This document shows positions 15,363 to 61,825 of a DNA stretch of 64,000 bases, piece by piece; positions within the stretch are counted from its first letter, which is position 1; every line of letters starts with the position of its first letter. The notes beneath the pieces were generated by a model. The model did no database searches. It worked only from the letters and a program-made list of their open reading frames with translations, and was not told the origin of the DNA. The DNA lies in sequence record OQ031492. The stretch is one strand, 5' to 3'. This DNA is from Escherichia phage MRostami-2023b. Both the position numbers and the translations under genes were made by a program.

Positions 15363-15410
15363 TCTTCTCCTANNNNNNNNNAGAAACTCCTTAAAAAGCA
15401 ATAGGTTAGA

Positions 15411-18400
15411 CTAATGGCAACTGGCCCAGGAATTTCCCACGTCATATCCAGCAGTAAGCTGAACATTAAGATTGTAAAATTCTCCAGCCTTAGTAACAGC
15501 TAAAGCAGCAAGTTCACCTGCCCGACTATAAGCTGTAAACCATCCACCTTTGGGAGATTCATGAATGTTAGCCCAAATTTGCCCTGTCTCTTTTTCCTTA
15601 TTATGCTTCCATTCTTCGACTTTAGCAAGGCATTCTTTATCAATTTTCTTTTGTTCTTCAGGATCGTCTACTTTCTTCCAACCTAATGATTCAGGTGAAA
15701 ACCATTTGAATTCTACAAGGTTACGAGAAACTTCAAGCTGGGCTTCATCGTGGTATGCAATCATTTGTTGCACGAAGTCTTTATTCTTCCAGTCATCTTT
15801 AAAGAAGTCAACACTTAGCCCTTCTTCTTCGATCATGTCATCATAAATAACCATTGCACGTTTAGCACAGATAACCCCACCGCTTTGGAACAGAGAGTTA
15901 AGAATCGCGTGAGCAGAACGAGTAGGAACCTTACGACCGTCAATACCCAAAACATATTGTTTACCAGTCTTAACCCAAAAATCGTTTAAACGTTCTTTAA
16001 GACGCGCCAATGGGAATGCAGCTTCCCAGAAAGCATCAAACACCAATTGACCTGTAAACTTATCGCTACCAATTGTTTTAGCAACCTTGTCGGCTTGTGC
16101 ACCATAGGTAATACCATACTTAACAGATTTAGCAGGACTACGTTCAAATTTACGTCCAATAGTTTCAGTGATACGTTTTGCCATCATTGTGTGAACATCG
16201 TTAGGTTTCTCTAACAACAGAGCGTTACAATATTCGTGTGGCTCCGGCTCGTACCGCCAACAGTTNNNNNNNNNNNNNNNNNNNNNNNNNNNNNNNNNNN
16301 NNNNNNNNNNNNNNNNNNNNNNNNNNNNNNNNNNNNNNNNNNNNNNNNNNNNNNNNNNNNNNNNNNNNNNNNNNNNNNNNNNNNNNNNNNNNNNNNNNNN
16401 NNNNNNNNNNNNNNNNNNNNNNNNNNNNNNNNNNNNNNNNNNNNNNNNNNNNNNNNNNNNNNNNNNNNNNNNNNNNNNNNNNNNNNNNNNNNNNNNNNNN
16501 NNNNNNNNNNNNNNNNNNNNNNNNNNNNNNNNNNNNNNNNNNNNNNNNNNNNNNNNNNNNNNNNNNNNNNNNNNNNNNNNNNNNNNNNNNNNNNNNNNNN
16601 NNNNNNNNNNNNNNNNNNNNNNNNNNNNNNNNNNNNNNNNNNNNNNNNNNNNNNNNNNNNNNNNNNNNNNNNNNNNNNNNNNNNNNNNNNNNNNNNNNNN
16701 NNNNNNNNNNNNNNNNNNNNNNNNNNNNNNNNNNNNNNNNNNNNNNNNNNNNNNNNNNNNNNNNNNNNNNNNNNNNNNNNNNNNNNNNNNNNNNNNNNNN
16801 NNNNNNNNNNNNNNNNNNNNNNNNNNNNNNNNNNNNNNNNNNNNNNNNNNNNNNNNNNNNNNNNNNNNNNNNNNNNNNNNNNNNNNNNNNNNNNNNNNNN
16901 NNNNNNNNNNNNNNNNNNNNNNNNNNNNNNNNNNNNNNNNNNNNNNNNNNNNNNNNNNNNNNNNNNNNNNNNNNNNNNNNNNNNNNATCGCCAAACAGTA
17001 GTGTGATTCAATTTTTGCTTCCAAAGAGTCGAAGTCGTAGCCGATCTGGAAGTATTTAGGAACTTCTACACCAAACAAGTTACGCATCTCCCATCCAAAC
17101 AAAGATGTGACACGAGGAATATTAGCTACAGATCTATGCTTCATACGAGAGGTTGCAGCATCACATGTAGCGGCTGGGGTAGGAATACGCCCATCCGCCC
17201 TTACTGCGGCTAAGAAACCTTTGTCATATTCTTGATCTTCCTCATCTTCTTCCCAATCAGCACCACCGCCTAAAATAGAGTTTCTACGATGCTTATACGT
17301 TAAGTATTCTACAATCTGTGTAGCATAAGGGAATTTCTCACCTAAAGCTTGCAGGTTAGGACAGATTTCTTTTTCCTGACCTTTGGTAAAACATGGGTTA
17401 GTCAATACTTTAAGACCGCGACCCTTACCTTTTGCTATACGCTCTTGAATCTTCCTTTCCAAGGTTTCCGGTGTGCACTCCAGATGATCACAACGGTCCT
17501 GACAAAAATTAGAAGATAGAGTTTGCTCAACGTAAGCTCGAATACCTTTCTGAAGTTCTTCCTCGCTCTTTTTAATCTTGGTGCCAGATTTAAGAGTCAA
17601 GTCTTTATCTTTATATTCAGACGGTACCCAACCTAATCCTACAAGCCAGTTTTTAATATGGGTTGTATCGTTCAATGTTGCAGGGATGTTAGGATCACAC
17701 AGAGGCTCATCTGCTGCAACTGGCAGTTTCCACTCTTTCCCCAACATAACTAACCACCAATCGCCATCCCTCTCTTCCAAATGACCATCATGTTTCTTAG
17801 CAAAATTGATCATATGGTTAGTTGGCTCTAAGTTCTTTTTAATTTGCAACTTAGGTGGAATAAAAGCTTTAAGATAACCTTTTGTTGCTGGTTTAGGTGG
17901 CAAAATAGGCTCAACGAGTAAACGAAGACGCTCCATTTCTGCATCCAAAAAAGCAAGGTTCTCTTCTGCTTGTTTCATGTTAAAAGCAAACCCACGGTGT
18001 TCCTGGCGTGTAATAATGTCTGCTACACGTTGTTCAAGTTCAAATGGACCTTCCCATTTATCATAATCACCCCATTCTTCCATAAGGTAATTATATACGC
18101 TCGTATTGGCTTTGTTGTCATAGATACAGTAATAAAGCATATCCGCAGCAAAAGTCTTAAATCGATCTTCTTCTGGAATCTCTTTACGGAAATCTATTTT
18201 TACATCACCACCTGCTTTTCGAGAAAGTGCTGCCAAGCTATGTCCTGATTTGCCCTCAATCTTTCGATCTGGGTTTAACACTTTACTCAAAATCAAGGAG
18301 TCAATAAGTTTTACCTTATTTTTGCCCCACGTATTATATTTAACACTGTAATCTAATCCATAAAACAGTTTTGTAGCCAACCAGTCGTAGTTGATACCGT

Positions 18401-29350: not shown

Positions 29351-29544
29351 TACAAACCCTCCTTCAGATTATCAAGAGCTACAGTGGTTTCACAAAATTC
29401 TCCATAAGCTTTATGATGTTCCAGAAAAGCTTCGGGTCCACCCCAGTCATTATCTTGTGTATTCCAGCCATCAATAAAAGCATCTTCAATGATTGTGATC
29501 AGTTCTTGTCGAGTCAACTGGANNNNNNNNNNNNNNNNNNNGTA

Positions 29545-35839: not shown

Positions 35840-36488
35840 TTACAATTTCTCCTCTTTTAAGTTTCTCTAGTAAGTCGTTAGGGTTCTTAATATGACAGAA
35901 GTTAAATCCTAAGTCAACACATTTTCCATCATATTCTTCACTATCGCCTACGTGCAACACTTCGTGCCCTAACAGAGGGATCGGAGAATACGTGAGCGTG
36001 CGAGCAAAGAATCGCGGATCTGGTTTACAAAGTAAAGCTTCATCCGAGAAATGGGTGAACTCAAAACAATTCCAACTATCAAACTTACAAGCACGACGCA
36101 GGATATCCCCTGATATGAAGTTGGTATTGCTCTTAATACTCAAATCATAACGCCCCGAAAGATACAGCAAGTACATCGGTAGATCCACAGCTACATGAGG
36201 TGGAAACTTAAGGAACCATTGTTCACACTCGAAACGNNNNNNNNNNNNNNNNNNNNNNNNNNNNNNNNNNNNNNNNNNNNNNNNNNNNNNNNNNNNNNNN
36301 NNNNNNNNNNNNNNNNNNNNNNNNNNNNNNNNNNNNNNNNNNNNNNNNNNNNNNNNNNNNNNNNNNNNNNNNNNNNNNNNNNNNNNNNNNNNNNNNNNNN
36401 NNNNNNNNNNNNNNNNNNNNNNNNNNNNNNNNNNNTTTGCAGTGATCAGTGTGTTCCATACATCAAAAGAGATATGTTTAATAGTCAT
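35832..36488 (-). CDS. HAD-superfamily hydrolase-like protein (interior masked by N)
   Basis: N-terminal ISFDVWNTLI (motif I-like), later KPDP and GDS; 199 N inside. Confidence 0.4.
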   Translation of the reverse strand: MTIKHISFDVWNTLITAXXXXXXXXXXXXXXXXXXXXXXXXXXXXXXXXXXXXXXXXXXXXXXXXXXXXXXXXXXXXXXXXXXXRFECEQWFLKFPPHVAVDLPMYLLYLSGRYDLSIKSNTNFISGDILRRACKFDSWNCFEFTHFSDEALLCKPDPRFFARTLTYSPIPLLGHEVLHVGDSEEYDGKCVDLGFNFCHIKNPNDLLEKLKRGEIVNA

Positions 36489-45098: not shown

Positions 45099-45454
45099 TT
45101 TTCCTCCTTTTTGTATTCAATGAACATATCTGCATAGTAAGCTTTACGTTCTTCAAATTTAGCAGGGTTTACCACAATGAAAANNNNNNNNNNNNNNNNN
45201 NNNNNNNNNNNNNNNNNNNNNNNNNNNNNNNNNNNNNNNNNNNNNNNNNNNNNNNNNNNNNNNNNNNNNNNNNNNNNNNNNNNNNNNNNNNNNNNNNNNN
45301 NNNNNNNNNNNNNNNNNNNNNNNNNNNNNNNNNNNNNNNNNNNNNNNNNNNNNNNNNNNNNNNNNNNNNNNNNNNNNNNNNNNNNNNNNNNNNNNNNNNN
45401 NNNNNNNNNNNNNNNNNNNNNNNNNNNNNNNNNNNNNNNNNNNNCTTTGCTCAT
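45095..45454 (-). CDS. Hypothetical protein, mostly masked by N
   Basis: Only termini readable. Confidence 0.25.
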   Translation of the reverse strand: MSKXXXXXXXXXXXXXXXXXXXXXXXXXXXXXXXXXXXXXXXXXXXXXXXXXXXXXXXXXXXXXXXXXXXXXXXXXXXXXXXXXXXXXXXXFIVVNPAKFEERKAYYADMFIEYKKEEK

Positions 45455-47678: not shown

Positions 47679-47998
47679 AAAACCTCCTCCTTGTTGGCTG
47701 CTTCAATCATAGCGTTAAGAGTCTCCATACCACTTTCAACTGCTTGAGCAATCTCTTGGAACACAGTTTTCTTAAAGATGTATAAAGATCCTGCCTGTAA
47801 GCGTTGCACACAGCATAAGATGGTTTGGTGATCCATAACAAAATCACCATAAGCACAATCAATTTTCCCTGTGATTNNNNNNNNNNNNNNNNNNNNNNNN
47901 NNNNNNNNNNNNNNNNNNNNNNNNNNNNNNNNNNNNNNNNNNNNNNNNNNNNNNNNNNNNNNNNNNNNAATTGACACGCTAAACAGACTGTTTGACAT
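47675..47998 (-). CDS. Hypothetical protein (92 N inside)
   Basis: 107 codons incl. masked part. Confidence 0.3.
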   Translation of the reverse strand: MSNSLFSVSIXXXXXXXXXXXXXXXXXXXXXXXXXXXXXXXITGKIDCAYGDFVMDHQTILCCVQRLQAGSLYIFKKTVFQEIAQAVESGMETLNAMIEAANKEEVL

Positions 47999-48689: not shown

Positions 48690-48983
48690 ATGATGAACAT
48701 TACTTTAGCAACTAAGAATATTTCTGAAACAATTAACGGTTTTGGTGTGATTGTAGCCTTGCACGGTAACAATGAGAAATGGTTGGCTTCTTTTGAAGAG
48801 GATCGTCAACACAACATTATTTTAGATGCTCCTATAAAAGTTATGCATATCGTTGGTGAAAGCAAAGTGCTTACTTCCTCCCGTTCAAAAGAACAAATTA
48901 CAAATGAATTAGTAAAACTGCTTGACAATGTTCTTAACATGTTTGATAATGCACCCATCGACACAAAACGTGTCTTAATGTGA
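48690..48983 (+). CDS. Hypothetical protein
   Basis: 97 aa, first gene of plus-strand block. Confidence 0.4.
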   Translation: MMNITLATKNISETINGFGVIVALHGNNEKWLASFEEDRQHNIILDAPIKVMHIVGESKVLTSSRSKEQITNELVKLLDNVLNMFDNAPIDTKRVLM

Positions 48984-50778: not shown

Positions 50779-51135
50779 ATGAAAAAATTAATCTTAGCCA
50801 CATTGCTGGCTACCGTAAGCTTCACCACTTACGCTCAAAAATTTGTAGCAGTTAAAACGGATATTGGTAAAGATGTTGTGATCACAGGCAACAAATTTTA
50901 CTATACACCTGGAAATGGTGTTCTGGAAGAGTGCCAAGATGTTGAGGCATATACAGGAAAAGAAGATAACACGGAACGTCCTTTTTATTCGATTATAGCT
51001 ACTTGCAAAAATGAAATAGTAGCTATTAAACAATACAAAGATGCACCTGGAGGAGAGTACTTATTAATCAAGAATATTAAGAGTGAAAAAACTGCAAAGT
51101 TTACAGTAATTATTTTAAAAGGAGAAACGTTCTAA
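50779..51135 (+). CDS. Secreted/periplasmic protein with signal peptide
   Basis: MKKLILATLLATVSFTTYAQK… after ggaggg RBS. Confidence 0.45.
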   Translation: MKKLILATLLATVSFTTYAQKFVAVKTDIGKDVVITGNKFYYTPGNGVLEECQDVEAYTGKEDNTERPFYSIIATCKNEIVAIKQYKDAPGGEYLLIKNIKSEKTAKFTVIILKGETF

Positions 51136-52274
51136 TGAAATACACTATTTTTGGAGATGTGGCTGTTGTAAATAAGGAATATGGTGTTGAAGCTAATAAA
51201 CTTCCTGCTGGAGTTTGGGTTGTCAACTGCGATCCGCACGGTAACTACTCTTTAGTGCGTGGCGAAAGTTTCTCTCTTCCGAACACTCTTTATGGGGAAA
51301 CTAAAGACCGCGCCGCACATGTTATTAAAACATTTGCTCGTCGTAGTAAAGAAGGTAAAAATACTGGGGTGTTACTGACAGGGACAAAGGGCAGTGGTAA
51401 GACGATGTTAGCTAAACTGATTAGCATGTCCCTAATGTCCACAGAAGGTTTAGGTATTCCAACCATTTTGGTGACACAGCCTTACACAGATGCTGGATTC
51501 TTAGAATTTATGAGTAAAATTACAGATCGTGCTGTTGTTTTATTTGACGAGTTTGATAAAGTGTACGCTAAGAAAGAAGATCAGGAAGCACTGTTGACCT
51601 TGTTGGATGGAACAGGAAGTGGGAATAAACTTTACATCCTCACTAAAAATAGTGGTTATATCTCGGAATATTTTGTAAACCGTCCTAGTCGTATCTACTA
51701 CAGTTTCAATTACGATAAACTGTCTAGTGAAACTATGTTAGATTATTTGGATAAGAACTTGGTAAATAAAAAGCACGTAGATAACTTCCAACGTTTATGG
51801 GATGTTAGCACAGAGTTGTCTTTCGATGTTATTCAAGGCATTGTAGAAGAATTGAATTTCTATCCAAAAATGACTTTTAAAGAATGTCTTGAAATGATGG
51901 GTATTTCTTTAGGCAACGATGCTAAATGGAATGTGGCTTCTATCGTAGCTAATGGCAAAACGCTGAAGGTGAATTGGATCAATAACTGGCACGACTTCAC
52001 CCCTACTAAGTTTTTGTCGGGTGCTTGTTCCCTGAACATCTATCTGCAAAGCTTGAAAGATGATGAAGTGGAAGCAATGGAAACCAACAGTTATGTTATC
52101 CTGGATGAAGATGGCGATGCACATATTGATCTATGTGCAACTGCTGATGGTCTAACTTGTGATCTGATTGAAGGTGGTAAGATTCTGGTGATGAGCACTA
52201 CACCAGGAAACACTCTGCGAGTGGTGCTGGAGCCTGTAACACAACGTTCCACCACATTAGGTAGCGTGTTCTAA
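51135..52274 (+). CDS. AAA-type P-loop ATPase
   Basis: Walker A GTKGSGKTMLAK, Walker B-like VVLFDEFDK. Confidence 0.55.
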   Translation: MKYTIFGDVAVVNKEYGVEANKLPAGVWVVNCDPHGNYSLVRGESFSLPNTLYGETKDRAAHVIKTFARRSKEGKNTGVLLTGTKGSGKTMLAKLISMSLMSTEGLGIPTILVTQPYTDAGFLEFMSKITDRAVVLFDEFDKVYAKKEDQEALLTLLDGTGSGNKLYILTKNSGYISEYFVNRPSRIYYSFNYDKLSSETMLDYLDKNLVNKKHVDNFQRLWDVSTELSFDVIQGIVEELNFYPKMTFKECLEMMGISLGNDAKWNVASIVANGKTLKVNWINNWHDFTPTKFLSGACSLNIYLQSLKDDEVEAMETNSYVILDEDGDAHIDLCATADGLTCDLIEGGKILVMSTTPGNTLRVVLEPVTQRSTTLGSVF

Positions 52275-52282
52275 TAAAGATG

Positions 52283-53191
52283 NNNNNNNNNNNNNNNNNN
52301 NNNNNNNNNNNNNNNNNNNNNNNNNNNNNNNNNNNNNNNNNNNNNNNNNNNNNNNNNNNNNNNNNNNNNNNNNNNNNNNNNNNNNNNNNNNNNNNNNNNN
52401 NNNNNNNNNNNNNNNNNNNNNNNNNNNNNNNNNNNNNNNNNNNNNNNNNNNNNNNNNNNNNNNNNNNNNNNNNNNNNNNNNNNNNNNNNNNNNNNNNNNN
52501 NNNNNNNNNNNNNNNNNNNNNNNNNNNNNNNNNNNNNNNNNNNNNNNNNNNNNNNNNNNNNNNNNNNNNNNNNNNNNNNNNNNNNNNNNNNNNNNNNNNN
52601 NNNNNNNNNNNNNNNNNNNNNNNNNNNNNNNNNNNNNNNNNNNNNNNNNNNNNNNNNNNNNNNNNNNNNNNNNNNNNNNNNNNNNNNNNNNNNNNNNNNN
52701 NNNNNNNNNNNNNNNNNNNNNNNNNNNNNNNNNNNNNNNNNNNNNNNNNNNNNNNNNNNNNNNNNNNNNNNNNNNNNNNNNNNNNNNNNNNNNNNNNNNN
52801 NNNNNNNNNNNNNNNNNNNNNNNNNNNNNNNNNNNNNNNNNNNNNNNNNNNNNNNNNNNNNNNNNNNNNNNNNNNNNNNNNNNNNNNNNNNNNNNNNNNN
52901 NNNNNNNNNNNNNNNNNNNNNNNNNNNNNNNNNNNNNNNNNNNNNNNNNNNNNNNNNNNNNNNNNNNNNNNNNNNNNNNNNNNNNNNNNNNNNNNNNNNN
53001 NNNNNNNNNNNNNNNNNNNNNNNNNNNNNNNNNNNNNNNNNNNNNNNNNNNNNNNNNNNNNNNNNNNNNNNNNNNNNNNNNNNNNNNNNNNNNNNNNNNN
53101 NNNNNNNNNNNNNNNNNNNNNNNNNNNNNNNNNNNNNNNNNNNNNNNNNNNNNNNNNNNNNNNNNNNNNNNNNNNNNNNNNNNNNNNNNNN
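52283..53191. other. Masked sequence (909 N)
   Basis: N run; content unknowable. Confidence 0.9.
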
Positions 53192-53524
53192 AATCAACAG
53201 CAATGTTACATTAACTATGTCTATGATGAACAAGGTGTTCTCTGTGCCTTGAAATTTGGCATTACTAAAGATAGCGATAGGCGTATTAAAGAACAAAATA
53301 GCCATAATGTGTTAACTATGAAACAACACCAAGTGTGGCACTTCCCTACTGTTAAGCAGTGCAAAGATGCAGAGAGTCGTTGTAAGCGTATTCTTGATAC
53401 GGAAGCAGTGAGCAAATATGCTATGCCAGATGGCTACACAGAAACAGTAGAGTTATCTTGCATGGCATCAATACAAAACATTTATAAACTTTATGGTGGA
53501 ACATTACAGGAGGAAACATGTTAG
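53192..53524 (+). CDS. C-terminal part of a protein with T5orf172/GIY-YIG-like segment (5' part masked)
   Basis: YINYVYDEQGVLCALKFGITKDSDRRIKEQN; frame continuity across N unverifiable. Confidence 0.3.
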   Translation, partial: NQQQCYINYVYDEQGVLCALKFGITKDSDRRIKEQNSHNVLTMKQHQVWHFPTVKQCKDAESRCKRILDTEAVSKYAMPDGYTETVELSCMASIQNIYKLYGGTLQEETC

Positions 53525-53883
53525 TTGATGTTCAAATTATGCGCAATGAAAGGATGGACTTCTTTGAAGCAGTAGAGAAACATCTGATCCGATGGGACTA
53601 TGAATTTGTTCCTGCTGGATGTGGACCAGTAGAGCATTTAGCGGAAGACGACGATGTATACATGATCATTCGTCAAGTGTACCAGACAGACCAGTGCGAA
53701 GAAACTCCCGAACTGATTTTGTTTGAGTGTAAAGATCTTGCAAAATATTTTGACTATGGCGGAAAAGAGGGTCATAATCTCTCCAGATACAATAAACGTC
53801 TACTTATCTTAGACTACATGCGGAACAACAAACACAAACTCATCGACGCAGACGCAGTTTATGGCTACTGGTGGATGGATTAA
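53518..53883 (+). CDS. Hypothetical protein
   Basis: 121 aa, RBS aggagg. Confidence 0.4.
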   Translation: MLVDVQIMRNERMDFFEAVEKHLIRWDYEFVPAGCGPVEHLAEDDDVYMIIRQVYQTDQCEETPELILFECKDLAKYFDYGGKEGHNLSRYNKRLLILDYMRNNKHKLIDADAVYGYWWMD

Positions 53884-53896
53884 CAAAGGAGAAACT

Positions 53897-54085
53897 ATGG
53901 CACGTTTAGCAGATCATGAAATCTTTAAACCTATTCTGAACCACTATGATGAACTTAAAGCAGTGTTGGATTGTTATAGAGAGGATGAAGAACTCTTGGA
54001 GACAAACCTTAAAGTAGTTCTGATGAAAGCCTATCAGCAAGGGCAACGTGAAATTTTGGAGAGTATGAAAAATGCGAATAACTGA
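53897..54085 (+). CDS. Hypothetical small protein
   Basis: Start at MARLADHE after aaggaga RBS. Confidence 0.35.
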   Translation: MARLADHEIFKPILNHYDELKAVLDCYREDEELLETNLKVVLMKAYQQGQREILESMKNANN

Positions 54086-54614
54086 TGATTATGTATTCTT
54101 CTTTTCACATAAAGATGTTTTTAGTAATTGGTATATTGCACCCTTTACAGAAACCGAACCAGGTTACAATCAGACATTTAATTGTGTCGAACAATACATG
54201 ATGTGGCGTAAAGCTTTGCTTTTTAATGATCACAACACTGCACAGGCTATTCTGACTCATAGTTTGATACGGAAAGATGAGAAGATCCAAGCTTATTACA
54301 AACGTATGGGTAGGGCAGTGTCGGATTTTGATAACAATGTATGGGAAGAGAACCGTGAGCGTATTGTTATGCGAGGTTTATGCTTGAAATATGTACAGAA
54401 TCCAGATTTGTATGCAGACTTACACCTTTACCAATACAAAACGTTTGTTGAAGCAAGCCCCTACGATAAGGTTTACGGAATTGGAATGGGGATGTATGAA
54501 CCAGGGGTGCTAAACCCTGCCACCTGGAAAGGGCAGAATCTTTTAGGTAAATATCATAATAAACTGATCGAAATACTTTTCCCAGACAGAATACCGCAAA
54601 GACGATATTTGTGA
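54072..54614 (+). CDS. NADAR-domain protein (YbiA-like)
   Basis: FFFSHKDVFSNWY…EQYMMWRKALLF…DKVYGIGMG…GQNLLGKYHNKL matches NADAR/DUF1768 landmarks. Confidence 0.65.
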   Translation: MRITDDYVFFFSHKDVFSNWYIAPFTETEPGYNQTFNCVEQYMMWRKALLFNDHNTAQAILTHSLIRKDEKIQAYYKRMGRAVSDFDNNVWEENRERIVMRGLCLKYVQNPDLYADLHLYQYKTFVEASPYDKVYGIGMGMYEPGVLNPATWKGQNLLGKYHNKLIEILFPDRIPQRRYL

Positions 54615-54857
54615 TATTTTAACTTTTTTCATTTTTAGAACAAAGGTGTCACTTTGTAGCACAGAAATAAGGCTCCTACAGCACCGTAGAGAGCCTGTTA
54701 TTTTGTCCTATACAAACCCTTATCTTTTTCAGTTTGCATCACTAGGATTCGATCTAAGTGGGTTCCTGAAGGTCTACTAATAAGATTAAAGGTTATCTCA
54801 AATTCCCATTACCTATTATCTCAAAAATCCCTCAAATTATTTAAACTTTTTAAGAAT

Positions 54858-54895
54858 TTACAAAAGTGAAAGTTGAAAACCAAAATTTAAAGTTT
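54858..54895. repeat. A-rich direct repeat copy 1 in non-coding control region
   Basis: tacaaaagtgaaagttgaaaaccaaaatttaaagttta; near-copies at 54998-55035 and partial at 54937-54966. Confidence 0.5.
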
Positions 54896-54997
54896 AGGAA
54901 AATTATCTTAAAATGTTAGATACAAAACAAAACTCAAAAGTCAAGGAAAATTTTAAAAATTTTGCGCGCCCACAGTATTTAAAGTTTTTTTGCTTTT

Positions 54998-55035
54998 ACA
55001 AAAATGAAAGTACAAAAGCAAAATTTAAAGTTTAC
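54998..55035. repeat. A-rich direct repeat copy 2
   Basis: tacaaaaatgaaagtacaaaagcaaaatttaaagttta. Confidence 0.5.
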
Positions 55036-55039
55036 AAAA

Positions 55040-55175
55040 ATTTTTATGCAGGTGAGAATGAGAAGAGTTCTCATATGGAAATGCAAATGATAATGATTCG
55101 CATTTAAGTTTATAAATGAGATTGATTCTTATTTAATAAGGTAAATGATAACCATTCTCATTTAGAGAATGACGC
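55040..55175. promoter_or_regulatory. Cluster of palindromic operator-like sites
   Basis: gagaatgagaagagttctcat; aaatgc-aaatgataatgatt-cgcattt (Fur-box-like GATAATGAT core); cattctcatttagagaatg. Confidence 0.4.
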
Positions 55176-55420
55176 GCAGGGGCGGTGTTTGTCTCGCGCT
55201 CCCGTGTCCCCTCGCCATGTAATAAGAATAACAGATCCAGCCAGGAAAGCAAGCGATTATTTTATCTTTACATTTCTTTACAAATATATAGCGCCCAGCC
55301 TACCGGCGATCAACCTTCCAACCAGCGCCCTGGTATGTTAGCCCCGCCTTTACGCCGTGGGGTGGCGCTTCCTCTTCTGTATGTAAAACAGTATAAGCCC
55401 TATCCCTGGGCTTGTCAAGA

Positions 55421-55687
55421 TTATTTTTTGTTTTCTTGCCAGGTCAGGACACCTAGCCAAAAATGAATATCACCTTTTCCCCAATGTGGTATATTGCTTT
55501 CNNNNNNNNNACTGCAAGCCCATAGATAACCATTTGCGAACGTATCAAAATGATCTATATCCTCGACCTTATAATCTGATAGGTTGAGAACGGTTTCAAC
55601 CTTTAAGCCCGTTGCGCTTGCTACCTGGTGCACCGTGCCGCCTTGCCAGCCCAATGAGTGCATAAGGTGTAATGTAGTATTTGTCAT
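55421..55687 (-). CDS. Hypothetical protein divergent from the early-gene array (8 N inside)
   Basis: 88 aa ORF; possible TTGCTA-17-TATCAT promoter upstream. Confidence 0.3.
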   Translation of the reverse strand: MTNTTLHLMHSLGWQGGTVHQVASATGLKVETVLNLSDYKVEDIDHFDTFANGYLWACSXXXESNIPHWGKGDIHFWLGVLTWQENKK

Positions 55688-55796
55688 GGTATCGCCCTTT
55701 CTTTGATGTGCGCCCTGGTTGGCGCGGTAGAAAGATGATAGCCCTTTCTTTTATATATAGCAAGCAAAAAGAAAATAAAAAAGATTGAAAAAGTGA

Positions 55797-55854
55797 TTGA
55801 CGTTCGCCAGGTGGCGGCATAATATTTACCACGTAGGGCGGCAATGGTGCCGCT
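55797..55854 (+). promoter_or_regulatory. Sigma70-type promoter (TTGACG-17-TAATAT) plus conserved leader hairpin
   Basis: -10 followed by ttaccacGTAGGGCGGCAatggTGCCGC. Confidence 0.6.
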
Positions 55855-55874
55855 CATTATTTGGAGTTAAAATC

Positions 55875-56072
55875 ATGGCAACATTGCACATTGTGGCGAA
55901 AGCTGGACAAATAAACGTGGTAGTAAACGGTTTTACTGAGTTCAGTCATCCCCAGGATGATCATGAAACGGTTTTATCTTTCATTGATTCACTGTTAGAA
56001 ATGGGAGTAATTACAGAAGACCAGCACGCTACAAAATGCAAACGCGTTAATCAAATTGCAGGGATAGAATAA
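55875..56072 (+). CDS. Small early-type protein
   Basis: 65 aa from ATG after ggagtt RBS. Confidence 0.4.
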   Translation: MATLHIVAKAGQINVVVNGFTEFSHPQDDHETVLSFIDSLLEMGVITEDQHATKCKRVNQIAGIE

Positions 56073-56078
56073 AAAGTA

Positions 56079-56137
56079 TTGACAACAAACAACAACCTGA
56101 TAAGATGTATCACATAGGGCGGGAAGTGGTTTCCCGC
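56079..56137 (+). promoter_or_regulatory. Promoter (TTGACA-16-TAAGAT) plus leader hairpin
   Basis: gtatcacATAGGGCGGGAAgtggtTTCCCGC. Confidence 0.55.
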
Positions 56138-56162
56138 TCGTAACAGAAGAGAGATTATCATC

Positions 56163-56435
56163 ATGGCATCATATAGCGCAACAATGATCGTAGCTGGCAC
56201 CACTGGTAAACCTATGTGCGGTGGCGGATCTTTCGCAAATATCAACATTGACGGGCGTTTATCCCTGGACGCAGCGATCACCGTGGCGCGGGAAACATTT
56301 AAGAAAGAATGTAAATTCAATAAACAAGATTATCTCGGTTTTGCTATTGAAAAAACCGCGCGCTTTGTTGATTATAAAAGCCCGAAAATGGTTGACACTA
56401 CATTAAAAGCGCAAGATGTAGCGTTTTTGCTTTAA
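56163..56435 (+). CDS. Small early-type protein
   Basis: 90 aa, RBS agaagagag. Confidence 0.4.
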   Translation: MASYSATMIVAGTTGKPMCGGGSFANINIDGRLSLDAAITVARETFKKECKFNKQDYLGFAIEKTARFVDYKSPKMVDTTLKAQDVAFLL

Positions 56436-56438
56436 GGC

Positions 56439-56494
56439 TTGACATTAACGACTAATTTGTTAATATGTTACATAAAGCGGGAATAGTTCCCGCT
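56439..56494 (+). promoter_or_regulatory. Promoter (TTGACA-16-TAATAT) plus leader hairpin
   Basis: AGCGGGAAtagTTCCCGCT after -10. Confidence 0.55.
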
Positions 56495-56511
56495 ATTTGT
56501 AAGGTGGTAGA

Positions 56512-56769
56512 ATGTTTTACATCAAATTAAAAGGTCACGTGATCGCGTTCAAAGATAACGCTTTTTACAGATTAGCAAAATATGCGTTAATACATCCCCA
56601 CTATGTTTATATAAGGGGGCGTGATGAAATAAATATCTTTGATCAAACAACATGCGAGAACATCGAGATCCGCAAGGTTGGCGTACGTGATTATCGTACA
56701 TCTTTCTACCCTTGCAAGGATTCAGCAAGTCTTTTCAAAGTATGCCAATTGTTGAAAAAAGGTGGTTAA
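56512..56769 (+). CDS. Small early-type protein
   Basis: 85 aa, RBS aaggtgg. Confidence 0.4.
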   Translation: MFYIKLKGHVIAFKDNAFYRLAKYALIHPHYVYIRGRDEINIFDQTTCENIEIRKVGVRDYRTSFYPCKDSASLFKVCQLLKKGG

Positions 56770-56770
56770 T

Positions 56771-57328
56771 ATGGGCCGCGAATATGTGATCCAGTCTTGG
56801 GTAAAACATGAAGCAGATGATCCGCGCATCATTCCCGATCATCTTATCGATGAATCCACGGGATATAGCGGTGAGCAAATAGGTAACAGATTAGCACGTA
56901 GTAACGGCAACGTAAAAGCACGTTATGTGCGCCCTGGCTGGCTGGCAAATGGTAACGCTGATTTATCCAGTGCGGAAGATGCGAGCGACGGCGCGAAAGA
57001 TAATCCTTTGTACAAAGTTGATCCGGCTTTTCGTGTCCTGGATGAATACCCCAGCAAGATAGCGGCGCTCGATCAGGCCCTGGAAAGTAAGCGCATCACC
57101 TGGACCGCTTACAACATGGCAAAAAACGTACTTGATGGTAAATTGATTCAAGCTGAAAGAAAATTAGCCAAAATTGCAGCTATAGCCCAGGAGGAAGACG
57201 AGGAGACAACGGAAGAGGAAGAGTACGAAGAGATCCCGCCGTTGTTGTGTGTTGATGCTTTTCCTGATTATCAGCCGACAGAGGAAGAAAAAAGGATCGC
57301 ACTAGAAAACTTTGAAAATAGTCTTTGA
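56771..57328 (+). CDS. Acidic hypothetical protein
   Basis: 185 aa from MGREYVIQ; Glu-rich C-terminal tract. Confidence 0.4.
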   Translation: MGREYVIQSWVKHEADDPRIIPDHLIDESTGYSGEQIGNRLARSNGNVKARYVRPGWLANGNADLSSAEDASDGAKDNPLYKVDPAFRVLDEYPSKIAALDQALESKRITWTAYNMAKNVLDGKLIQAERKLAKIAAIAQEEDEETTEEEEYEEIPPLLCVDAFPDYQPTEEEKRIALENFENSL

Positions 57329-57382
57329 CATATCGCCGCCACTGGCATAATATTTACCACGTAGGGCGGCAATGGTGCCGCT
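57325..57382 (+). promoter_or_regulatory. Promoter (TTGACA-17-TAATAT) plus leader hairpin
   Basis: Near-identical to 55797-55854 element. Confidence 0.55.
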
Positions 57383-57410
57383 CATAGTAAAATTATGCAA
57401 GAGGTTTGCA

Positions 57411-57506
57411 ATGATTAATAAAGAAAATAGCTTGACGGTTGGAACGATTAACGCTATCATTTTCGCCGTTCCATTTTGGGTTGTAGTAGCGGCTATTATT
57501 TTCTAA
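57411..57506 (+). CDS. Tiny hydrophobic peptide (31 aa)
   Basis: MINKENSLTVGTINAIIFAVPFWVVVAAIIF; own promoter-hairpin. Confidence 0.3.
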   Translation: MINKENSLTVGTINAIIFAVPFWVVVAAIIF

Positions 57507-57515
57507 AAAATATTC

Positions 57516-57576
57516 TTGACAACGTTTTTTAATCTGATAAGATGTATCACATAGGGCGGCGGAATACTTCCCCGCC
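57516..57576 (+). promoter_or_regulatory. Promoter (TTGACA-16-TAAGAT) plus leader hairpin
   Basis: gtatcacATAGGGCGGCGGAAtacTTCCCCGCC. Confidence 0.55.
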
Positions 57577-57597
57577 AAAACAAAAAAGGGTAACACA

Positions 57598-57960
57598 ATG
57601 AGCAAGCAAATCAGTACTATCATGTTTAATCTGGTATCTTTCCGCGATGATATGAAAAATTTACCACGTGAAACGGTTGATATTCATGTTTCAGCTTATC
57701 GCGCCCTTATTGACATGTTACCGCTAAAACGTGATCAACATGCCGCTAATATGATGCTTAATGCTATGCTTAAAAAGATGATTCAAACTGATCTCACCCT
57801 GGCATATGAGTATCAAGGGCGCTTATATGCAACTTACAACAAAACGGTACCTGGTTTGGGAAGTACCGAAGAGTTGCACGGCTTAAACCTGGATCAAAAC
57901 ACTTGGGATAGTATGCGCCGCGTTATGGTATGGGCCGAAAGCGGTAAAATTTACGAATAA
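57598..57960 (+). CDS. Small early-type protein
   Basis: 120 aa. Confidence 0.4.
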   Translation: MSKQISTIMFNLVSFRDDMKNLPRETVDIHVSAYRALIDMLPLKRDQHAANMMLNAMLKKMIQTDLTLAYEYQGRLYATYNKTVPGLGSTEELHGLNLDQNTWDSMRRVMVWAESGKIYE

Positions 57961-57966
57961 AAACGG

Positions 57967-58023
57967 TTGACACTGTTTAAACTTCTGGTATAGTTTATCA
58001 CGTAGGGCGGCAATGGTGCCGCC
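57967..58023 (+). promoter_or_regulatory. Promoter (TTGACA-16-TATAGT) plus leader hairpin
   Basis: ttatcacGTAGGGCGGCAatggTGCCGCC. Confidence 0.55.
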
Positions 58024-58828: not shown

Positions 58829-59056
58829 ATGGCTATCAATATTGTTCGCGTATCCGGCACCGTTGGCACTTCACAGGTTATTGCAGTCGTCACNNNNNNN
58901 NNNNNNNNNNNNNNNNNNNNNNCCTTGAATAAGTGGGCTATTGCTAATTTTGGGGAATATGCAAGCGTCGAGTACATCGAATCCTACCAGGTGCCAACCA
59001 TCAGCCTAACCGATCTCAACGTTGATCGCCTGTTATGCCTGGATGAATTAATCTGA
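58829..59056 (+). CDS. Small early-type protein (39 N inside)
   Basis: 75 codons incl. masked part. Confidence 0.3.
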   Translation: MAINIVRVSGTVGTSQVIAVVXXXXXXXXXXXLNKWAIANFGEYASVEYIESYQVPTISLTDLNVDRLLCLDELI

Positions 59057-59143: not shown

Positions 59144-59339
59144 ATGNNNNNNNNNNNNNNNNNNNNNNNNNNNNNNNNNNNNNNNNNNNNNNNNNNNNNN
59201 NNNNNNNNNNNNNNNNNNNNNNNNNNNNNNNNNNNNNNNNNNNNNNNNNNNNNNNNNNNNNNNNNNNNNNNNNNNNNNNNNNNNNNNNNNNNNNNNNNNN
59301 NNNNNNNNNNNNNNNNNNNNNNNNNTTATAAAATAAAGC
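59144..59339 (+). CDS. Small ORF, start only; remainder masked
   Basis: ATG after agaagagagattatc RBS; 179 N follow. Confidence 0.2.
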
Positions 59340-61551: not shown

Positions 61552-61825
61552 NNNNNNNNNNNNNNNNNNNNNNNNNNNNNNNNNNNNNNNNNNNNNNNNN
61601 NNNNNNNNNNNNNNNNNNNNNNNNNNNNNNNNNNNNNNNNNNNNNNNNNNNNNNNNNNNNNNNNNNNNNNNNNNNNNNNNNNNNNNNNNNNNNNNNNNNN
61701 NNNNNNNNNNNNNNNNNNNNNNNNNNNNNNNNNNNNNNNNNNNNNNNNNNNNNNNNNNNNNNNNNNNNNNNNNNNNNNNNNNNNNNNNNNNNNNNNNNNN
61801 NNNNNNNNNNNNNNNNNNNNNNNNN
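61552..61825. other. Masked sequence (274 N) bounded by near-identical promoter-leader copies
   Basis: Both flanks read attattatttatcacgtagggcgag. Confidence 0.8.

Follow-up and report, generated by a model that had tools for sequence, protein, structure and literature searches.

A Phapecoctavirus NADAR-domain protein related to AdfN(Bas60) is a candidate eraser of DarT1-made ADP-ribose marks on guanine

The NADAR gene and its transcription unit

The window analyzed here is a 64,000-nucleotide stretch of DNA from Escherichia phage MRostami-2023b (sequence record OQ031492), which is a Phapecoctavirus (phAPEC8-like) within the Stephanstirmvirinae. The features at the locus are as follows.

53897..54085, plus strand: small ORF 5′ of the NADAR gene, 62 aa from the ATG at 53897, matching phrog_22330, which has no assigned function
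54058..54063, plus strand: Shine-Dalgarno-like GGAGAG, 8 nt 5′ of the NADAR ATG, from direct reading of the sequence
54072..54614, plus strand: NADAR-domain CDS, 180 aa and stop, from the ORF list, family profiles, fold and orthologs
54670..54706, plus strand: intrinsic-terminator-like hairpin (54670-54696) followed by the U-rich tail UGUUAUUUUG, from RNA folding

The NADAR gene runs on the plus strand from an ATG at 54072 to a stop codon ending at 54614 and encodes a single-domain protein of 180 aa. An earlier note on this DNA had pointed to NADAR (YbiA-like) landmarks in the ORF, and a profile search of the protein bears this out, with Pfam PF08719 (NADAR / DUF1768) matching at 124.2 bits (E=7.8e-36) against a gathering cut-off of 35.1 bits. 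The match aligns residues 11-161 with profile positions 3-154 and covers 152 of the 163 positions. The protein also scored 113.1 bits with TIGR02464 (ribofla_fusion, 'riboflavin biosynthesis intermediates N-glycosidase'; cut-off 73.7 bits), a model that appears to take in Glu-type NADARs generally. It further matched phrog_1017 (E=1e-51) and, in a sequence search of the PDB, the NADAR structure 8BAU (E=3.9e-15), and the predicted fold described below is of the same kind. The NADAR call exceeds chance by far, and we conclude that the ORF is a real gene that encodes a genuine NADAR protein. PADLOC was not discriminating: its single match was to PDC-M42C, a NADAR model for a candidate system, and this model matches YbiA and the Bas61 protein as well; none of the PADLOC DarG models matched. 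With the NCBIfam model DS32_2 'NADAR family anti-phage protein', the protein scored 17 bits where 240 are required, which excludes it from that family.

The start of the NADAR gene and the end of the small ORF overlap by 14 nt, which suggests that the two are co-transcribed and possibly translationally coupled. Annotations of phAPEC8, anhysbys and ETEC-TG give the small ORF as a CDS of 189 nt, and its phrog_22330 match starts at residue 13 of a longer, 74-aa version. Both genes belong to a plus-strand block that begins near 48690 and has the NADAR gene last. The neighbors encode an AAA ATPase, an endonuclease and small proteins without assigned function; no ART or DarT Pfam match was obtained among them, with N masking 909 bases of the endonuclease gene upstream.

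The hairpin at 54670-54696 folds with a dG of -22.6 kcal/mol (z=-5.6), none of 200 shuffled sequences was as stable, and its equivalent in phAPEC8 carries an ARNold terminator annotation. A bulge in its stem kept it from being listed by a simple terminator pattern scan, and direct folding recovered it. This terminator-like hairpin marks the end of the transcription unit containing the NADAR gene. Beyond it lies an AT-rich, repeat-bearing intergenic region (~54775-55165, 22-27% GC), and plus-strand genes restart ~1.2 kb downstream of the NADAR gene, from 55797. The earlier note had placed the gene last in the plus-strand block, ahead of a repeat-rich control region; this is broadly right, but what ends here is a transcription unit and not plus-strand coding as a whole, which resumes at 55797. 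An E-value-threshold Rfam scan of 53000-58000 returned no match, so no known RNA element lies over the NADAR gene or the downstream repeats. An ARAGORN scan of the whole window found no tRNA genes.

Fold and active site

The AlphaFold (AF2) model of the protein (pLDDT 95.8, pTM 0.89) has the YbiA-like alpha+beta fold, in which two small beta sheets flank a helical core. When the model was compared with the PDB using Foldseek, the best match was 8BAU, the ADP-ribose-bound structure of the Phytophthora nicotianae NADAR (PnNADAR; TM 0.78, E=2.8e-9), followed by YbiA (2B3W; TM 0.68, E=2.9e-6), and there was no further match with E<1.

Residues essential to NADARs are known from mutagenesis or from an ADP-ribose co-crystal (Schuller et al. 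2023, PMC11543638). Mapped from PnNADAR (Pn) and from the E. coli C7 protein (C7), they correspond to E40 (Pn E43 / C7 E88), K47 (Pn K50 / C7 K95), K77 (Pn K75 / C7 K115), R81 (Pn R79), W91 (Pn W89), R95 (Pn R93), E127 (Pn E125 / C7 D171) and D132 (Pn D130) of the phage protein. The catalytic and ADP-ribose-contact set (E40, K47, K77, R81, W91, E127 and D132) is thus complete, and five of these residues (E40, K47, W91, E127 and D132) are invariant across 62 homologs. The catalytic Glu/Lys pair, E40 and K47, aligns with the corresponding residues of 8BAU, YbiA, T4 gp30.3 (E36/K43) and Bas61, and the Glu at the Pn E125 position, E127, is invariant in the clade of the phage protein. Two other positions are altered relative to PnNADAR, where W133 corresponds to Y135 and D86 to N88.

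K77 is of particular interest, since its equivalent, C7 K115, is required in vivo for countering DarT1 (PMC11543638). The lysine is also present in Bas61, and the position is occupied by Ala in YbiA and by Gln in T4 gp30.3, two proteins that do not rescue DarT1 toxicity in uninfected cells (Cihlova et al. 2024, PMC11125620).

Orthologs, selection and allele exchange

The phAPEC8 ortholog, gp010 (YP_007348624.1), is 98% identical to the phage protein. At greater distance, bas61_0107 shares 58-59% identity over 172 aligned positions (E=6e-70), and the two loci have the same gene order, from AAA ATPase through endonuclease/hypothetical gene and NADAR to an AT-rich intergenic region. By similarity and synteny, we assign the gene as the ortholog of AdfN(Bas60) / phi92 gp223. 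Among the phages PaulScherrer, EmilieFrey (bas61 locus tags) and JohannJBalmer, NADAR identity is 98.9% or more in every pair.

Stand-alone, non-YbiA bacterial and phage NADARs share 41-47% identity with the protein, and its closest cellular homologs are stand-alone NADARs without adjoining NAD or riboflavin genes, which fits the published tree that places AdfN(Bas60) outside the YbiA-like group (Johannesman et al., PMC11825919). A profile of the phage clade scored 124.7 bits on PnNADAR versus 62.3 bits on YbiA.

The gene is under strong purifying selection, with dN/dS of 0.07-0.15 for four Phapecoctavirus alleles. A complete, invariant catalytic set under such selection is what would be expected of an active enzyme. 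Substitutions cluster at residues 52-94, where comparison of this phage with Schickermooser gave saturated dS and a dN/dS of ~0.08. Positive selection as the source of the cluster is ruled out by these two values, and the pattern indicates an exchanged, more diverged segment rather than adaptive change. The ADP-ribose-binding helix lies within the recombining central segment (residues 28-94), as does a basic loop specific to the clade, and this segment could adjust how different alleles recognize substrate or DNA.

A proposed role in countering DarTG1

We consider it likely that the protein, the Phapecoctavirus ortholog of AdfN(Bas60), is a free-standing, active NADAR ADP-ribosylglycohydrolase that erases DarT1 marks. 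During infection, the enzyme would bind ADP-ribose on guanine N2 in phage DNA, holding the diphosphate with K47, K77, R81, W91 and R95 and stacking the adenine on F86, while E40 and E127, placed on both sides of the distal ribose, would break the N-glycosidic bond. The replication-blocking marks left by DarT1-type ADP-ribosyltransferases would be erased in this way, and phage replication in DarTG1-carrying E. coli would follow. The protein would then serve as an orphan antitoxin turned to counter-defense.

We infer the catalytic activity, substrate and in vivo role of this allele from its relatives. AdfN(Bas60), the NADAR of the BASEL phages Bas60/61/62, neutralizes DarT1 toxicity in uninfected cells and restores plaquing of RB69, T5 and Bas25 on DarTG1 hosts; it does not act against the thymidine-specific DarTG2, on which T5 was not rescued (Johannesman et al. 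2025, Nat Commun 16:1598, PMC11825919). DarT1 neutralization together with phage rescue on DarTG1 has been demonstrated only for AdfN(Bas60), AdfN(Bas32) and AdfN(T4) (PMC11825919). All NADAR subfamilies tried so far remove guanine-linked ADP-ribose (G-ADPr) in vitro (PMC11125620, PMC12945103). Reversal of guanine ADP-ribosylation, which the earlier note had put forward as a candidate role, is therefore the best supported function, given the intact active site and the syntenic ortholog. Hydrolysis of G-ADPr in vitro is no guarantee of DarT1 protection in cells (Cihlova et al. 2024, PMC11125620). NADAR function of this kind has already been reported in the sister genus, and the gene described here is largely an expected family member.

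Several features of the protein were counted against an anti-DarT1 role: the 41% divergence from AdfN(Bas60), the passing TIGR02464 score, Y135 and N88, and also the lack of a basic N-terminal extension, which in DarG1-type NADARs is thought to bind ssDNA.

We also considered whether the substrate might be broader than, or other than, DarT1-made G-ADPr on DNA, for instance cytidine-linked ADP-ribose (C-ADPr), ADP-ribose on RNA bases, or soluble ADP-ribose-derived immune signals, in which case other ART- or NADase-based defenses would be countered. Glu-type 'NADAR family' and YbiA-type enzymes remove both C-ADPr and G-ADPr, from DNA and RNA, and DarG1-type and His-type T4 NADARs do not remove C-ADPr (PMC12945103). 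The phage protein has Glu at E127 and belongs to the clade whose profile lies nearer PnNADAR than YbiA, and all NADARs tried remove G-ADPr from RNA (PMC11833690). However, E. coli is not known to have an anti-phage system that produces C-ADPr, or that places G-ADPr on RNA, and the sole in vivo phenotype of the ortholog AdfN(Bas60) is anti-DarTG1 (PMC11825919). Of the neighbors examined, none was recognized as a Macro, SLOG, Nudix or NAD-salvage gene. We therefore regard this alternative as unlikely, and since extra substrates would add to an anti-DarT1 role, it partly overlaps the explanation that we favor.

Database names such as 'YbiA-like N-glycosidase' imply a YbiA-like housekeeping N-glycosidase, whose task in the infected cell would be to clear reactive intermediates of the riboflavin pathway. 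The protein clears the TIGR02464 cut-off, the Glu at E127 is common to the YbiA subfamily, and the ESCO5, TSP7_1, ABPW7 and EF1-1 records name the ortholog 'GTP cyclohydrolase II'. That label was probably carried over from RibA-NADAR fusion proteins, because the NADAR protein has no such domain; neither it nor its neighbors contain a Rib domain (RibA/RibD), and there are no riboflavin genes in the neighborhood or in ~55 kb of the phAPEC8 annotation. The protein is 30% identical to YbiA, less than to PnNADAR (35%) or to the stand-alone NADARs (41-47%), the profile score on PnNADAR is twice that on YbiA, and AdfN(Bas60) is itself placed outside the YbiA-like group (PMC11825919). It is also not obvious why a lytic phage would require control of flavin damage, and we find this reading very improbable.

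A non-enzymatic role, in which the protein binds ADP-ribose or an ADP-ribosylated effector and so inhibits a NADase-type defense in the manner of a phage NADAR-like inhibitor of Retron-Eco1, is equally hard to credit, as the catalytic set is complete, does not vary and is held under strong purifying selection, and the ortholog AdfN(Bas60) is effective against DarT1. In 2024, Carabias and colleagues reportedly described U56, a phage protein with ADPr-binding ability that is an inhibitor of Retron-Eco1. No solved structure of the Retron-Eco1-inhibitor type in the PDB matched the NADAR query or its profile.

Wider implications

Within the anti-DarT1 role, it is possible, though we hold it to be somewhat doubtful, that the Stephanstirmvirinae enzyme is a broad-spectrum nucleobase de-ADP-ribosylase acting on guanine and cytidine in both DNA and RNA, because its active site is of the Glu type and carries neither the Asp of DarG1 nor the His of T4 AdfN. 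If so, it would protect against DarTG1 and against undescribed enterobacterial ADP-ribosyltransferase defenses or toxins.

Confirmation of the anti-DarT1 role would give a function to a gene that is labeled 'hypothetical protein' or mislabeled 'GTP cyclohydrolase II' and that is present in well over a hundred genomes of phAPEC8-like and phi92-like coliphages, which are therapeutic candidates. It would also predict natural resistance of these phages to DarTG1-carrying E. coli, a prediction that bears on host-range forecasting in phage therapy. As a second, 41%-diverged allele in the Bas60-type AdfN lineage, the protein may help to map the surface residues needed for activity on DNA in vivo. K77 is a candidate for such a residue, as this protein and DarG1 have it and the NADARs without effect in uninfected cells do not.

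Comparison with known NADARs

By its sequence, the phage protein groups with the Glu-type 'NADAR family' and is neither DarG1-type nor T4-type. DarG1 is the DarT1-associated NADAR antitoxin of the BC4488 subfamily, known from E. coli C7 and Geobacter lovleyi (Schuller et al. 2023, Mol Cell 83:2303). The phage protein resembles it in fold, in the E/K catalytic pair (C7 E88, K95), in the K115 equivalent and in the predicted chemistry, which is hydrolysis of the guanine-N2-ADP-ribose bond. In contrast, DarG1 has an Asp (C7 D171, PMC11543638) where the phage protein has E127, and a basic N-terminal beta-beta-alpha extension, whereas the phage protein begins at the first core strand (MRITDDYVFFF) with residues 7-10 as the first strand and the first element of the model. 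The DarG1 gene adjoins DarT1, whereas the phage gene is an orphan in a lytic phage. DarG1-type sequences are too distant for sequence or profile searches of the PDB to find.

T4 AdfN (gp30.3) is likewise an orphan phage NADAR directed against DarTG1, and it keeps the E/K pair, but identity is 18%, with His at the E127 position and Gln at the K77 position. It depends on the context of T-even infection and alone gives no rescue of DarT1 toxicity (PMC11825919, PMC11125620), and it is considered an independent acquisition by Johannesman et al. (PMC11825919). YbiA has the same core fold, a Glu at the E127 position and a passing TIGR02464 score. However, it has Ala for K77 and Pro for F86, and it lacks the region of the 12-residue segment MYEPGVLNPATW that precedes the last helix. 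In the bacterial host, YbiA is moreover encoded by a housekeeping gene of an operon under LexA control, and it gives cells no protection from DarT1 (PMC11125620).

PnNADAR is the best PDB match by both structure and sequence, at 35% identity, and its ADP-ribose-contact residues match those of the phage protein nearly one for one. PnNADAR and the stand-alone bacterial NADARs are cellular proteins, and relative to them the phage protein carries clade-specific insertions at approximately residues 27-33 and 63-70.

The closest counterpart is AdfN(Bas60), found in PaulScherrer, EmilieFrey and JohannJBalmer of the genus Justusliebigvirus and belonging to the phi92 gp223 family. Erasure of DarT1 marks by orphan phage NADARs has been on record since 2025, and the protein reported here would not be a new category. 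Both proteins come from the subfamily Stephanstirmvirinae and the same genomic slot, both are single-domain proteins of 180-183 aa without an N-terminal extension, and both have the Glu-type active site, K77 and Y135. The two differ at 41% of residues; in the Bas61 protein the listed contact residues match except that F86 is Tyr and N88 is Glu. Near residue 30, a beta-hairpin insertion is longer by 6-7 aa in the Bas60-type protein, and compared with the Bas60-type locus, Phapecoctavirus has two small extra ORFs between the endonuclease and NADAR genes.

A NADAR gene at the end of a plus-strand transcription unit

The gene lies exactly where the earlier note had placed it, at 54072-54614 on the plus strand. 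The NADAR landmarks that the note had read in its sequence were confirmed by an HMM search, in which the protein spanned almost the full profile of Pfam PF08719 (124.2 bits, E = 7.8e-36, gathering threshold 35.1). It also matched NCBIfam TIGR02464 (113 bits, cut-off 73.7) and PHROG 1017 (E = 1e-51), and its sole significant PDB sequence match was 8BAU, the Phytophthora nicotianae NADAR with bound ADP-ribose (PnNADAR; E = 3.9e-15). An AlphaFold2 model based on 62 homologs was of high confidence (pLDDT 95.8, pTM 0.89), and Foldseek against the PDB at E < 1 returned two matches only, 8BAU (TM 0.78) and E. coli YbiA, 2B3W (TM 0.68). We conclude that the NADAR assignment is beyond chance resemblance.

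Features surrounding the NADAR gene
51135-52274, plus strand: AAA ATPase gene, before the NADAR gene
52283-53191, plus strand: first 909 bases, all N, of an endonuclease gene; readable C-terminus matches phrog_681 'endonuclease' and, weakly, T5orf172/MUG113
Between endonuclease and NADAR genes, plus strand: two small proteins, phrog_24465 and phrog_22330
53897-54085, plus strand: the phrog_22330 ORF, directly before NADAR, its end overlapping the NADAR start by 14 nt
8 nt 5′ of the NADAR ATG, plus strand: Shine-Dalgarno sequence GGAGAG
54072-54614, plus strand: NADAR CDS, from the ATG at 54072 to the end of the stop codon at 54614, 180 aa
54670-54696, plus strand: bulged GC-rich hairpin, then UGUUAUUUUG, 55 nt past the NADAR stop
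54833-54904 and 54971-55042: 72-nt direct repeat pair, 82% identity
Within 54775-55165: 29-nt repeat family, three copies
55057-55164: unit with the palindrome TAAATGAGA...TCTCATTTA, three copies at 29-nt spacing, with an inverted repeat at 55113-55135 / 55142-55164

The 2 kb surrounding the gene share 96-97% identity with many Phapecoctavirus genomes (subfamily Stephanstirmvirinae), including phAPEC8, ESCO5, nepoznato, anhysbys and iGC_PHA_EC001, and phAPEC8 gp010, annotated 'hypothetical protein', is the ortholog, with 98% amino-acid identity. For several near-identical genomes the record names a 'Campylobacter phage' or an 'Acinetobacter phage', a label that is hard to square with 96-99% identity to coliphages. 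In the window, as in phAPEC8, the NADAR gene closes a plus-strand run of small genes that starts near 48690. The endonuclease gene two genes 5′ of it is mostly removed by an N run and ranges from 999 to 1461 nt across relatives, a variation to be expected of a mobile homing-type endonuclease. Ten further N runs bring the window's total to 11 (15373-15381, 16266-16986, 29523-29541, 36237-36435, 45184-45444, 47877-47968, 55502-55510, 58894-58922, 59147-59325 and 61552-61825).

The hairpin past the NADAR stop has a fold energy of -22.6 kcal/mol, compared with -9.5 +/- 2.4 for shuffles (z = -5.6), and the equivalent site in phAPEC8 is annotated as a terminator. Beyond it, the repeats occupy an AT-rich intergenic stretch at about 54775-55165 (22-27% GC vs 39% for the window), suggestive of an iteron/origin-like or multi-operator region; phage anhysbys carries a 'repeat_region' annotation at the equivalent place, and an Rfam search of the stretch gave no match. 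The gene had been described as the last of the plus-strand block before the repeats. The end of a plus-strand unit and the repeats are both there, but plus-strand genes restart from 55797, so the NADAR gene ends a transcription unit and not the plus-strand coding region. Directly past the repeats is a GC-rich island (55170-55450, 45-51% GC) whose annotation differs among relatives: in phAPEC8 a plus-strand CDS, gp009, is called, and in anhysbys and Bas61 only minus-strand small genes are called, farther on, corresponding to 55421-55687 (minus strand, phrog_19316) in the window.

The catalytic set is intact and of the Glu type

Residues were mapped by a HMMER alignment to 8BAU and a nine-sequence MAFFT alignment onto the ADP-ribose-binding residues of 8BAU and the essential residues of the E. 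coli C7 DarG1-type NADAR, as reported by Schuller et al. 2023 (PMC11543638).

Active-site residues of the window protein, with equivalents in PnNADAR (Pn) and the C7 NADAR (C7)
E40: Pn E43, C7 E88; catalytic
K47: Pn K50, C7 K95; catalytic, phosphate
K77: Pn K75, C7 K115; needed in vivo against DarT1 (C7)
R81: Pn R79; phosphate
F86: Pn Y84; adenine stacking
N88: Pn D86; proximal ribose
W91: Pn W89
R95: Pn R93
E127: Pn E125, C7 D171; catalytic, subfamily marker
D132: Pn D130
Y135: Pn W133

A 62-sequence alignment shows no variation at E40, K47, G80, W91, E127 and D132, and it has K77 in 61 sequences and R81 in 60. At the marker position, Schuller et al. assign Glu to the YbiA and 'NADAR' families, Asp to DarG1/BC4488 and His to T4-like phage NADARs; the window protein has Glu, and His aligns there in T4 gp30.3. 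Identity to the window protein is 41-47% for stand-alone bacterial NADARs, 35% for PnNADAR, 30% for E. coli YbiA and 18% for T4 gp30.3, and its clade profile scored 124.7 bits on 8BAU vs 62.3 on YbiA. Two of its closest cellular homologs, one from Burkholderia in a prophage-like context and one on a Kofleriaceae chromosome, are both stand-alone, and ART, riboflavin and NAD-salvage genes were absent from among their neighbours. The Burkholderia multivorans homolog (P0100; L009 4001-4489) adjoins Gp3-like and DUF7696 genes and for this reason probably lies in a prophage.

Schuller et al. also describe C7 K115 as dispensable in vitro and required in cells to counter DarT1 (PMC11543638). YbiA and T4 gp30.3 hydrolyse guanine-linked ADP-ribose (G-ADPr) in vitro and do not rescue uninfected cells from DarT1 toxicity (PMC11125620). 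At the K77 position the window protein and the Bas61 NADAR have Lys, YbiA has Ala and T4 gp30.3 has Gln, which suggests that K77 may track, as a correlate, with DarT1 rescue in uninfected cells.

Purifying selection and a mosaic central segment

Four Phapecoctavirus alleles of the gene were compared (those of the window, phAPEC8, Schickermooser and ETEC-TG). Their Nei-Gojobori dN/dS of 0.07-0.15 indicates that the gene is maintained as a functional protein, and none of the catalytic residues was changed. Amino-acid changes are concentrated in residues 28-94 (54153-54353), the central third, where dS is saturated (>2, compared with 0.15-0.6 in the flanks) and dN/dS between the window and Schickermooser is about 0.08. 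This pattern indicates exchange of a more divergent segment by intragenic recombination; positive selection there was rejected on the saturated dS with low dN/dS. Within the segment are the helix that binds ADP-ribose (K77, R81) and a basic loop specific to the clade (residues 63-71).

An ortholog of a validated anti-DarTG1 factor

A tblastn search of 50,697 phage records with the window protein found a NADAR homolog in 718. Phapecoctavirus orthologs share 86-99% identity, and the next tier, at 59%, is Justusliebigvirus (phi92-like), which includes Escherichia phage EmilieFrey (locus tags bas61_xxxx). Its bas61_0107, a 'putative YbiA-like N-glycosidase' (BLASTP 102/172 identities, E = 6e-70), occupies the same genomic slot: an AAA/FtsH-like ATPase gene, one hypothetical gene, NADAR, then an intergenic region with small genes. 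PaulScherrer, EmilieFrey and JohannJBalmer carry NADARs that share at least 98.9% identity among themselves and with phi92 gp223. Johannesman et al. (Nat Commun 2025, PMC11825919) report that Bas60, Bas61 and Bas62 encode one NADAR, named AdfN(Bas60). In uninfected E. coli it neutralised the toxicity of DarT1, and on DarTG1 hosts it allowed RB69, T5 and Bas25 to form plaques again; T5 gained no protection from DarTG2, which is specific for thymidine. The window protein is thus the ortholog, in a sister genus, of a factor whose action against DarTG1 has been validated by experiment.

The homologs (phrog_1017) are found chiefly in large myoviruses that infect Staphylococcus (Kayvirus-like), Listeria, Enterococcus and Bacillus, and in Klebsiella and Cronobacter phages and Lak megaphages.

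Proposed mechanism and alternatives

Our analysis shows the family, the fold, a complete set of catalytic residues, the orthology, the purifying selection and that the gene closes a transcription unit. DarT1 produces guanine N2-linked ADP-ribose in DNA, which blocks phage DNA replication. We propose that the NADAR protein is made during infection and would bind ADP-ribose on guanine N2 of phage DNA; the E40/E127 pair would then hydrolyse the N-glycosidic bond, with K47, K77 and R81 on the diphosphate, releasing ADP-ribose and restoring guanine. Because the target is the product and not the toxin, it should be effective against any guanine-specific DNA ADP-ribosyltransferase. The window protein very probably hydrolyses G-ADPr in vitro, since every NADAR tested does so (PMC11125620, PMC11833690, PMC12945103), and its selected role is likely to be countering DarTG1-type defence.

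Substrates broader than, or different from, DarT1-made G-ADPr on DNA would be compatible with this role and seem rather unlikely. Glu-type NADAR and YbiA members, and not DarG1 or the T4 NADAR, also take cytidine-linked ADP-ribose off DNA and RNA (PMC12945103), G-ADPr RNA is a substrate of all NADARs tested (PMC11833690), and the chief targets suggested for phage NADARs by Iyer et al. are soluble ADPr derivatives (PMC9503650). A broad de-ADP-ribosylating activity on G and C in both DNA and RNA, tuned by the mosaic central segment, is a tentative idea and less likely than not. It is highly improbable that the protein is a non-enzymatic ADPr-binding inhibitor of NADase defence, as cited for a phage NADAR and Retron-Eco1 by Johannesman et al. 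(PMC11825919), because the invariant catalytic set points to an enzyme. YbiA-like riboflavin damage control, for which the sole support is the TIGR02464 match and transferred database names, is contradicted by phylogenetic affinity, genomic context and the lack of a Rib domain, and we give it very little credence.

Records for ESCO5, TSP7_1, ABPW7, EF1-1, AV123 and several Gram-positive phages name the ortholog 'GTP cyclohydrolase II', probably taken over from RibA-NADAR fusion proteins since the protein has no such domain, and many other records call it 'hypothetical protein'. Re-annotating both groups is of practical value, and DarTG1 resistance would become predictable in a phage group widely proposed for therapy.

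Comparison with known NADAR systems

The function of the Bas60-type lineage was already published in 2025; our literature search found nothing linking NADAR with phAPEC8 or Phapecoctavirus. The window protein is predicted to work like DarG1, the DarT1-associated antitoxin, yet it has Glu where DarG1 has Asp, lacks the N-terminal extension of DarG1 and, unlike DarG1, has no adjacent DarT, features that rule out membership of the DarG1 family. A T4-type AdfN is likewise ruled out by Glu in place of His and an identity of only 18%. Sequence and synteny instead make the window protein part of the AdfN lineage typified by Bas60, which belongs to the Glu-type 'NADAR family'.
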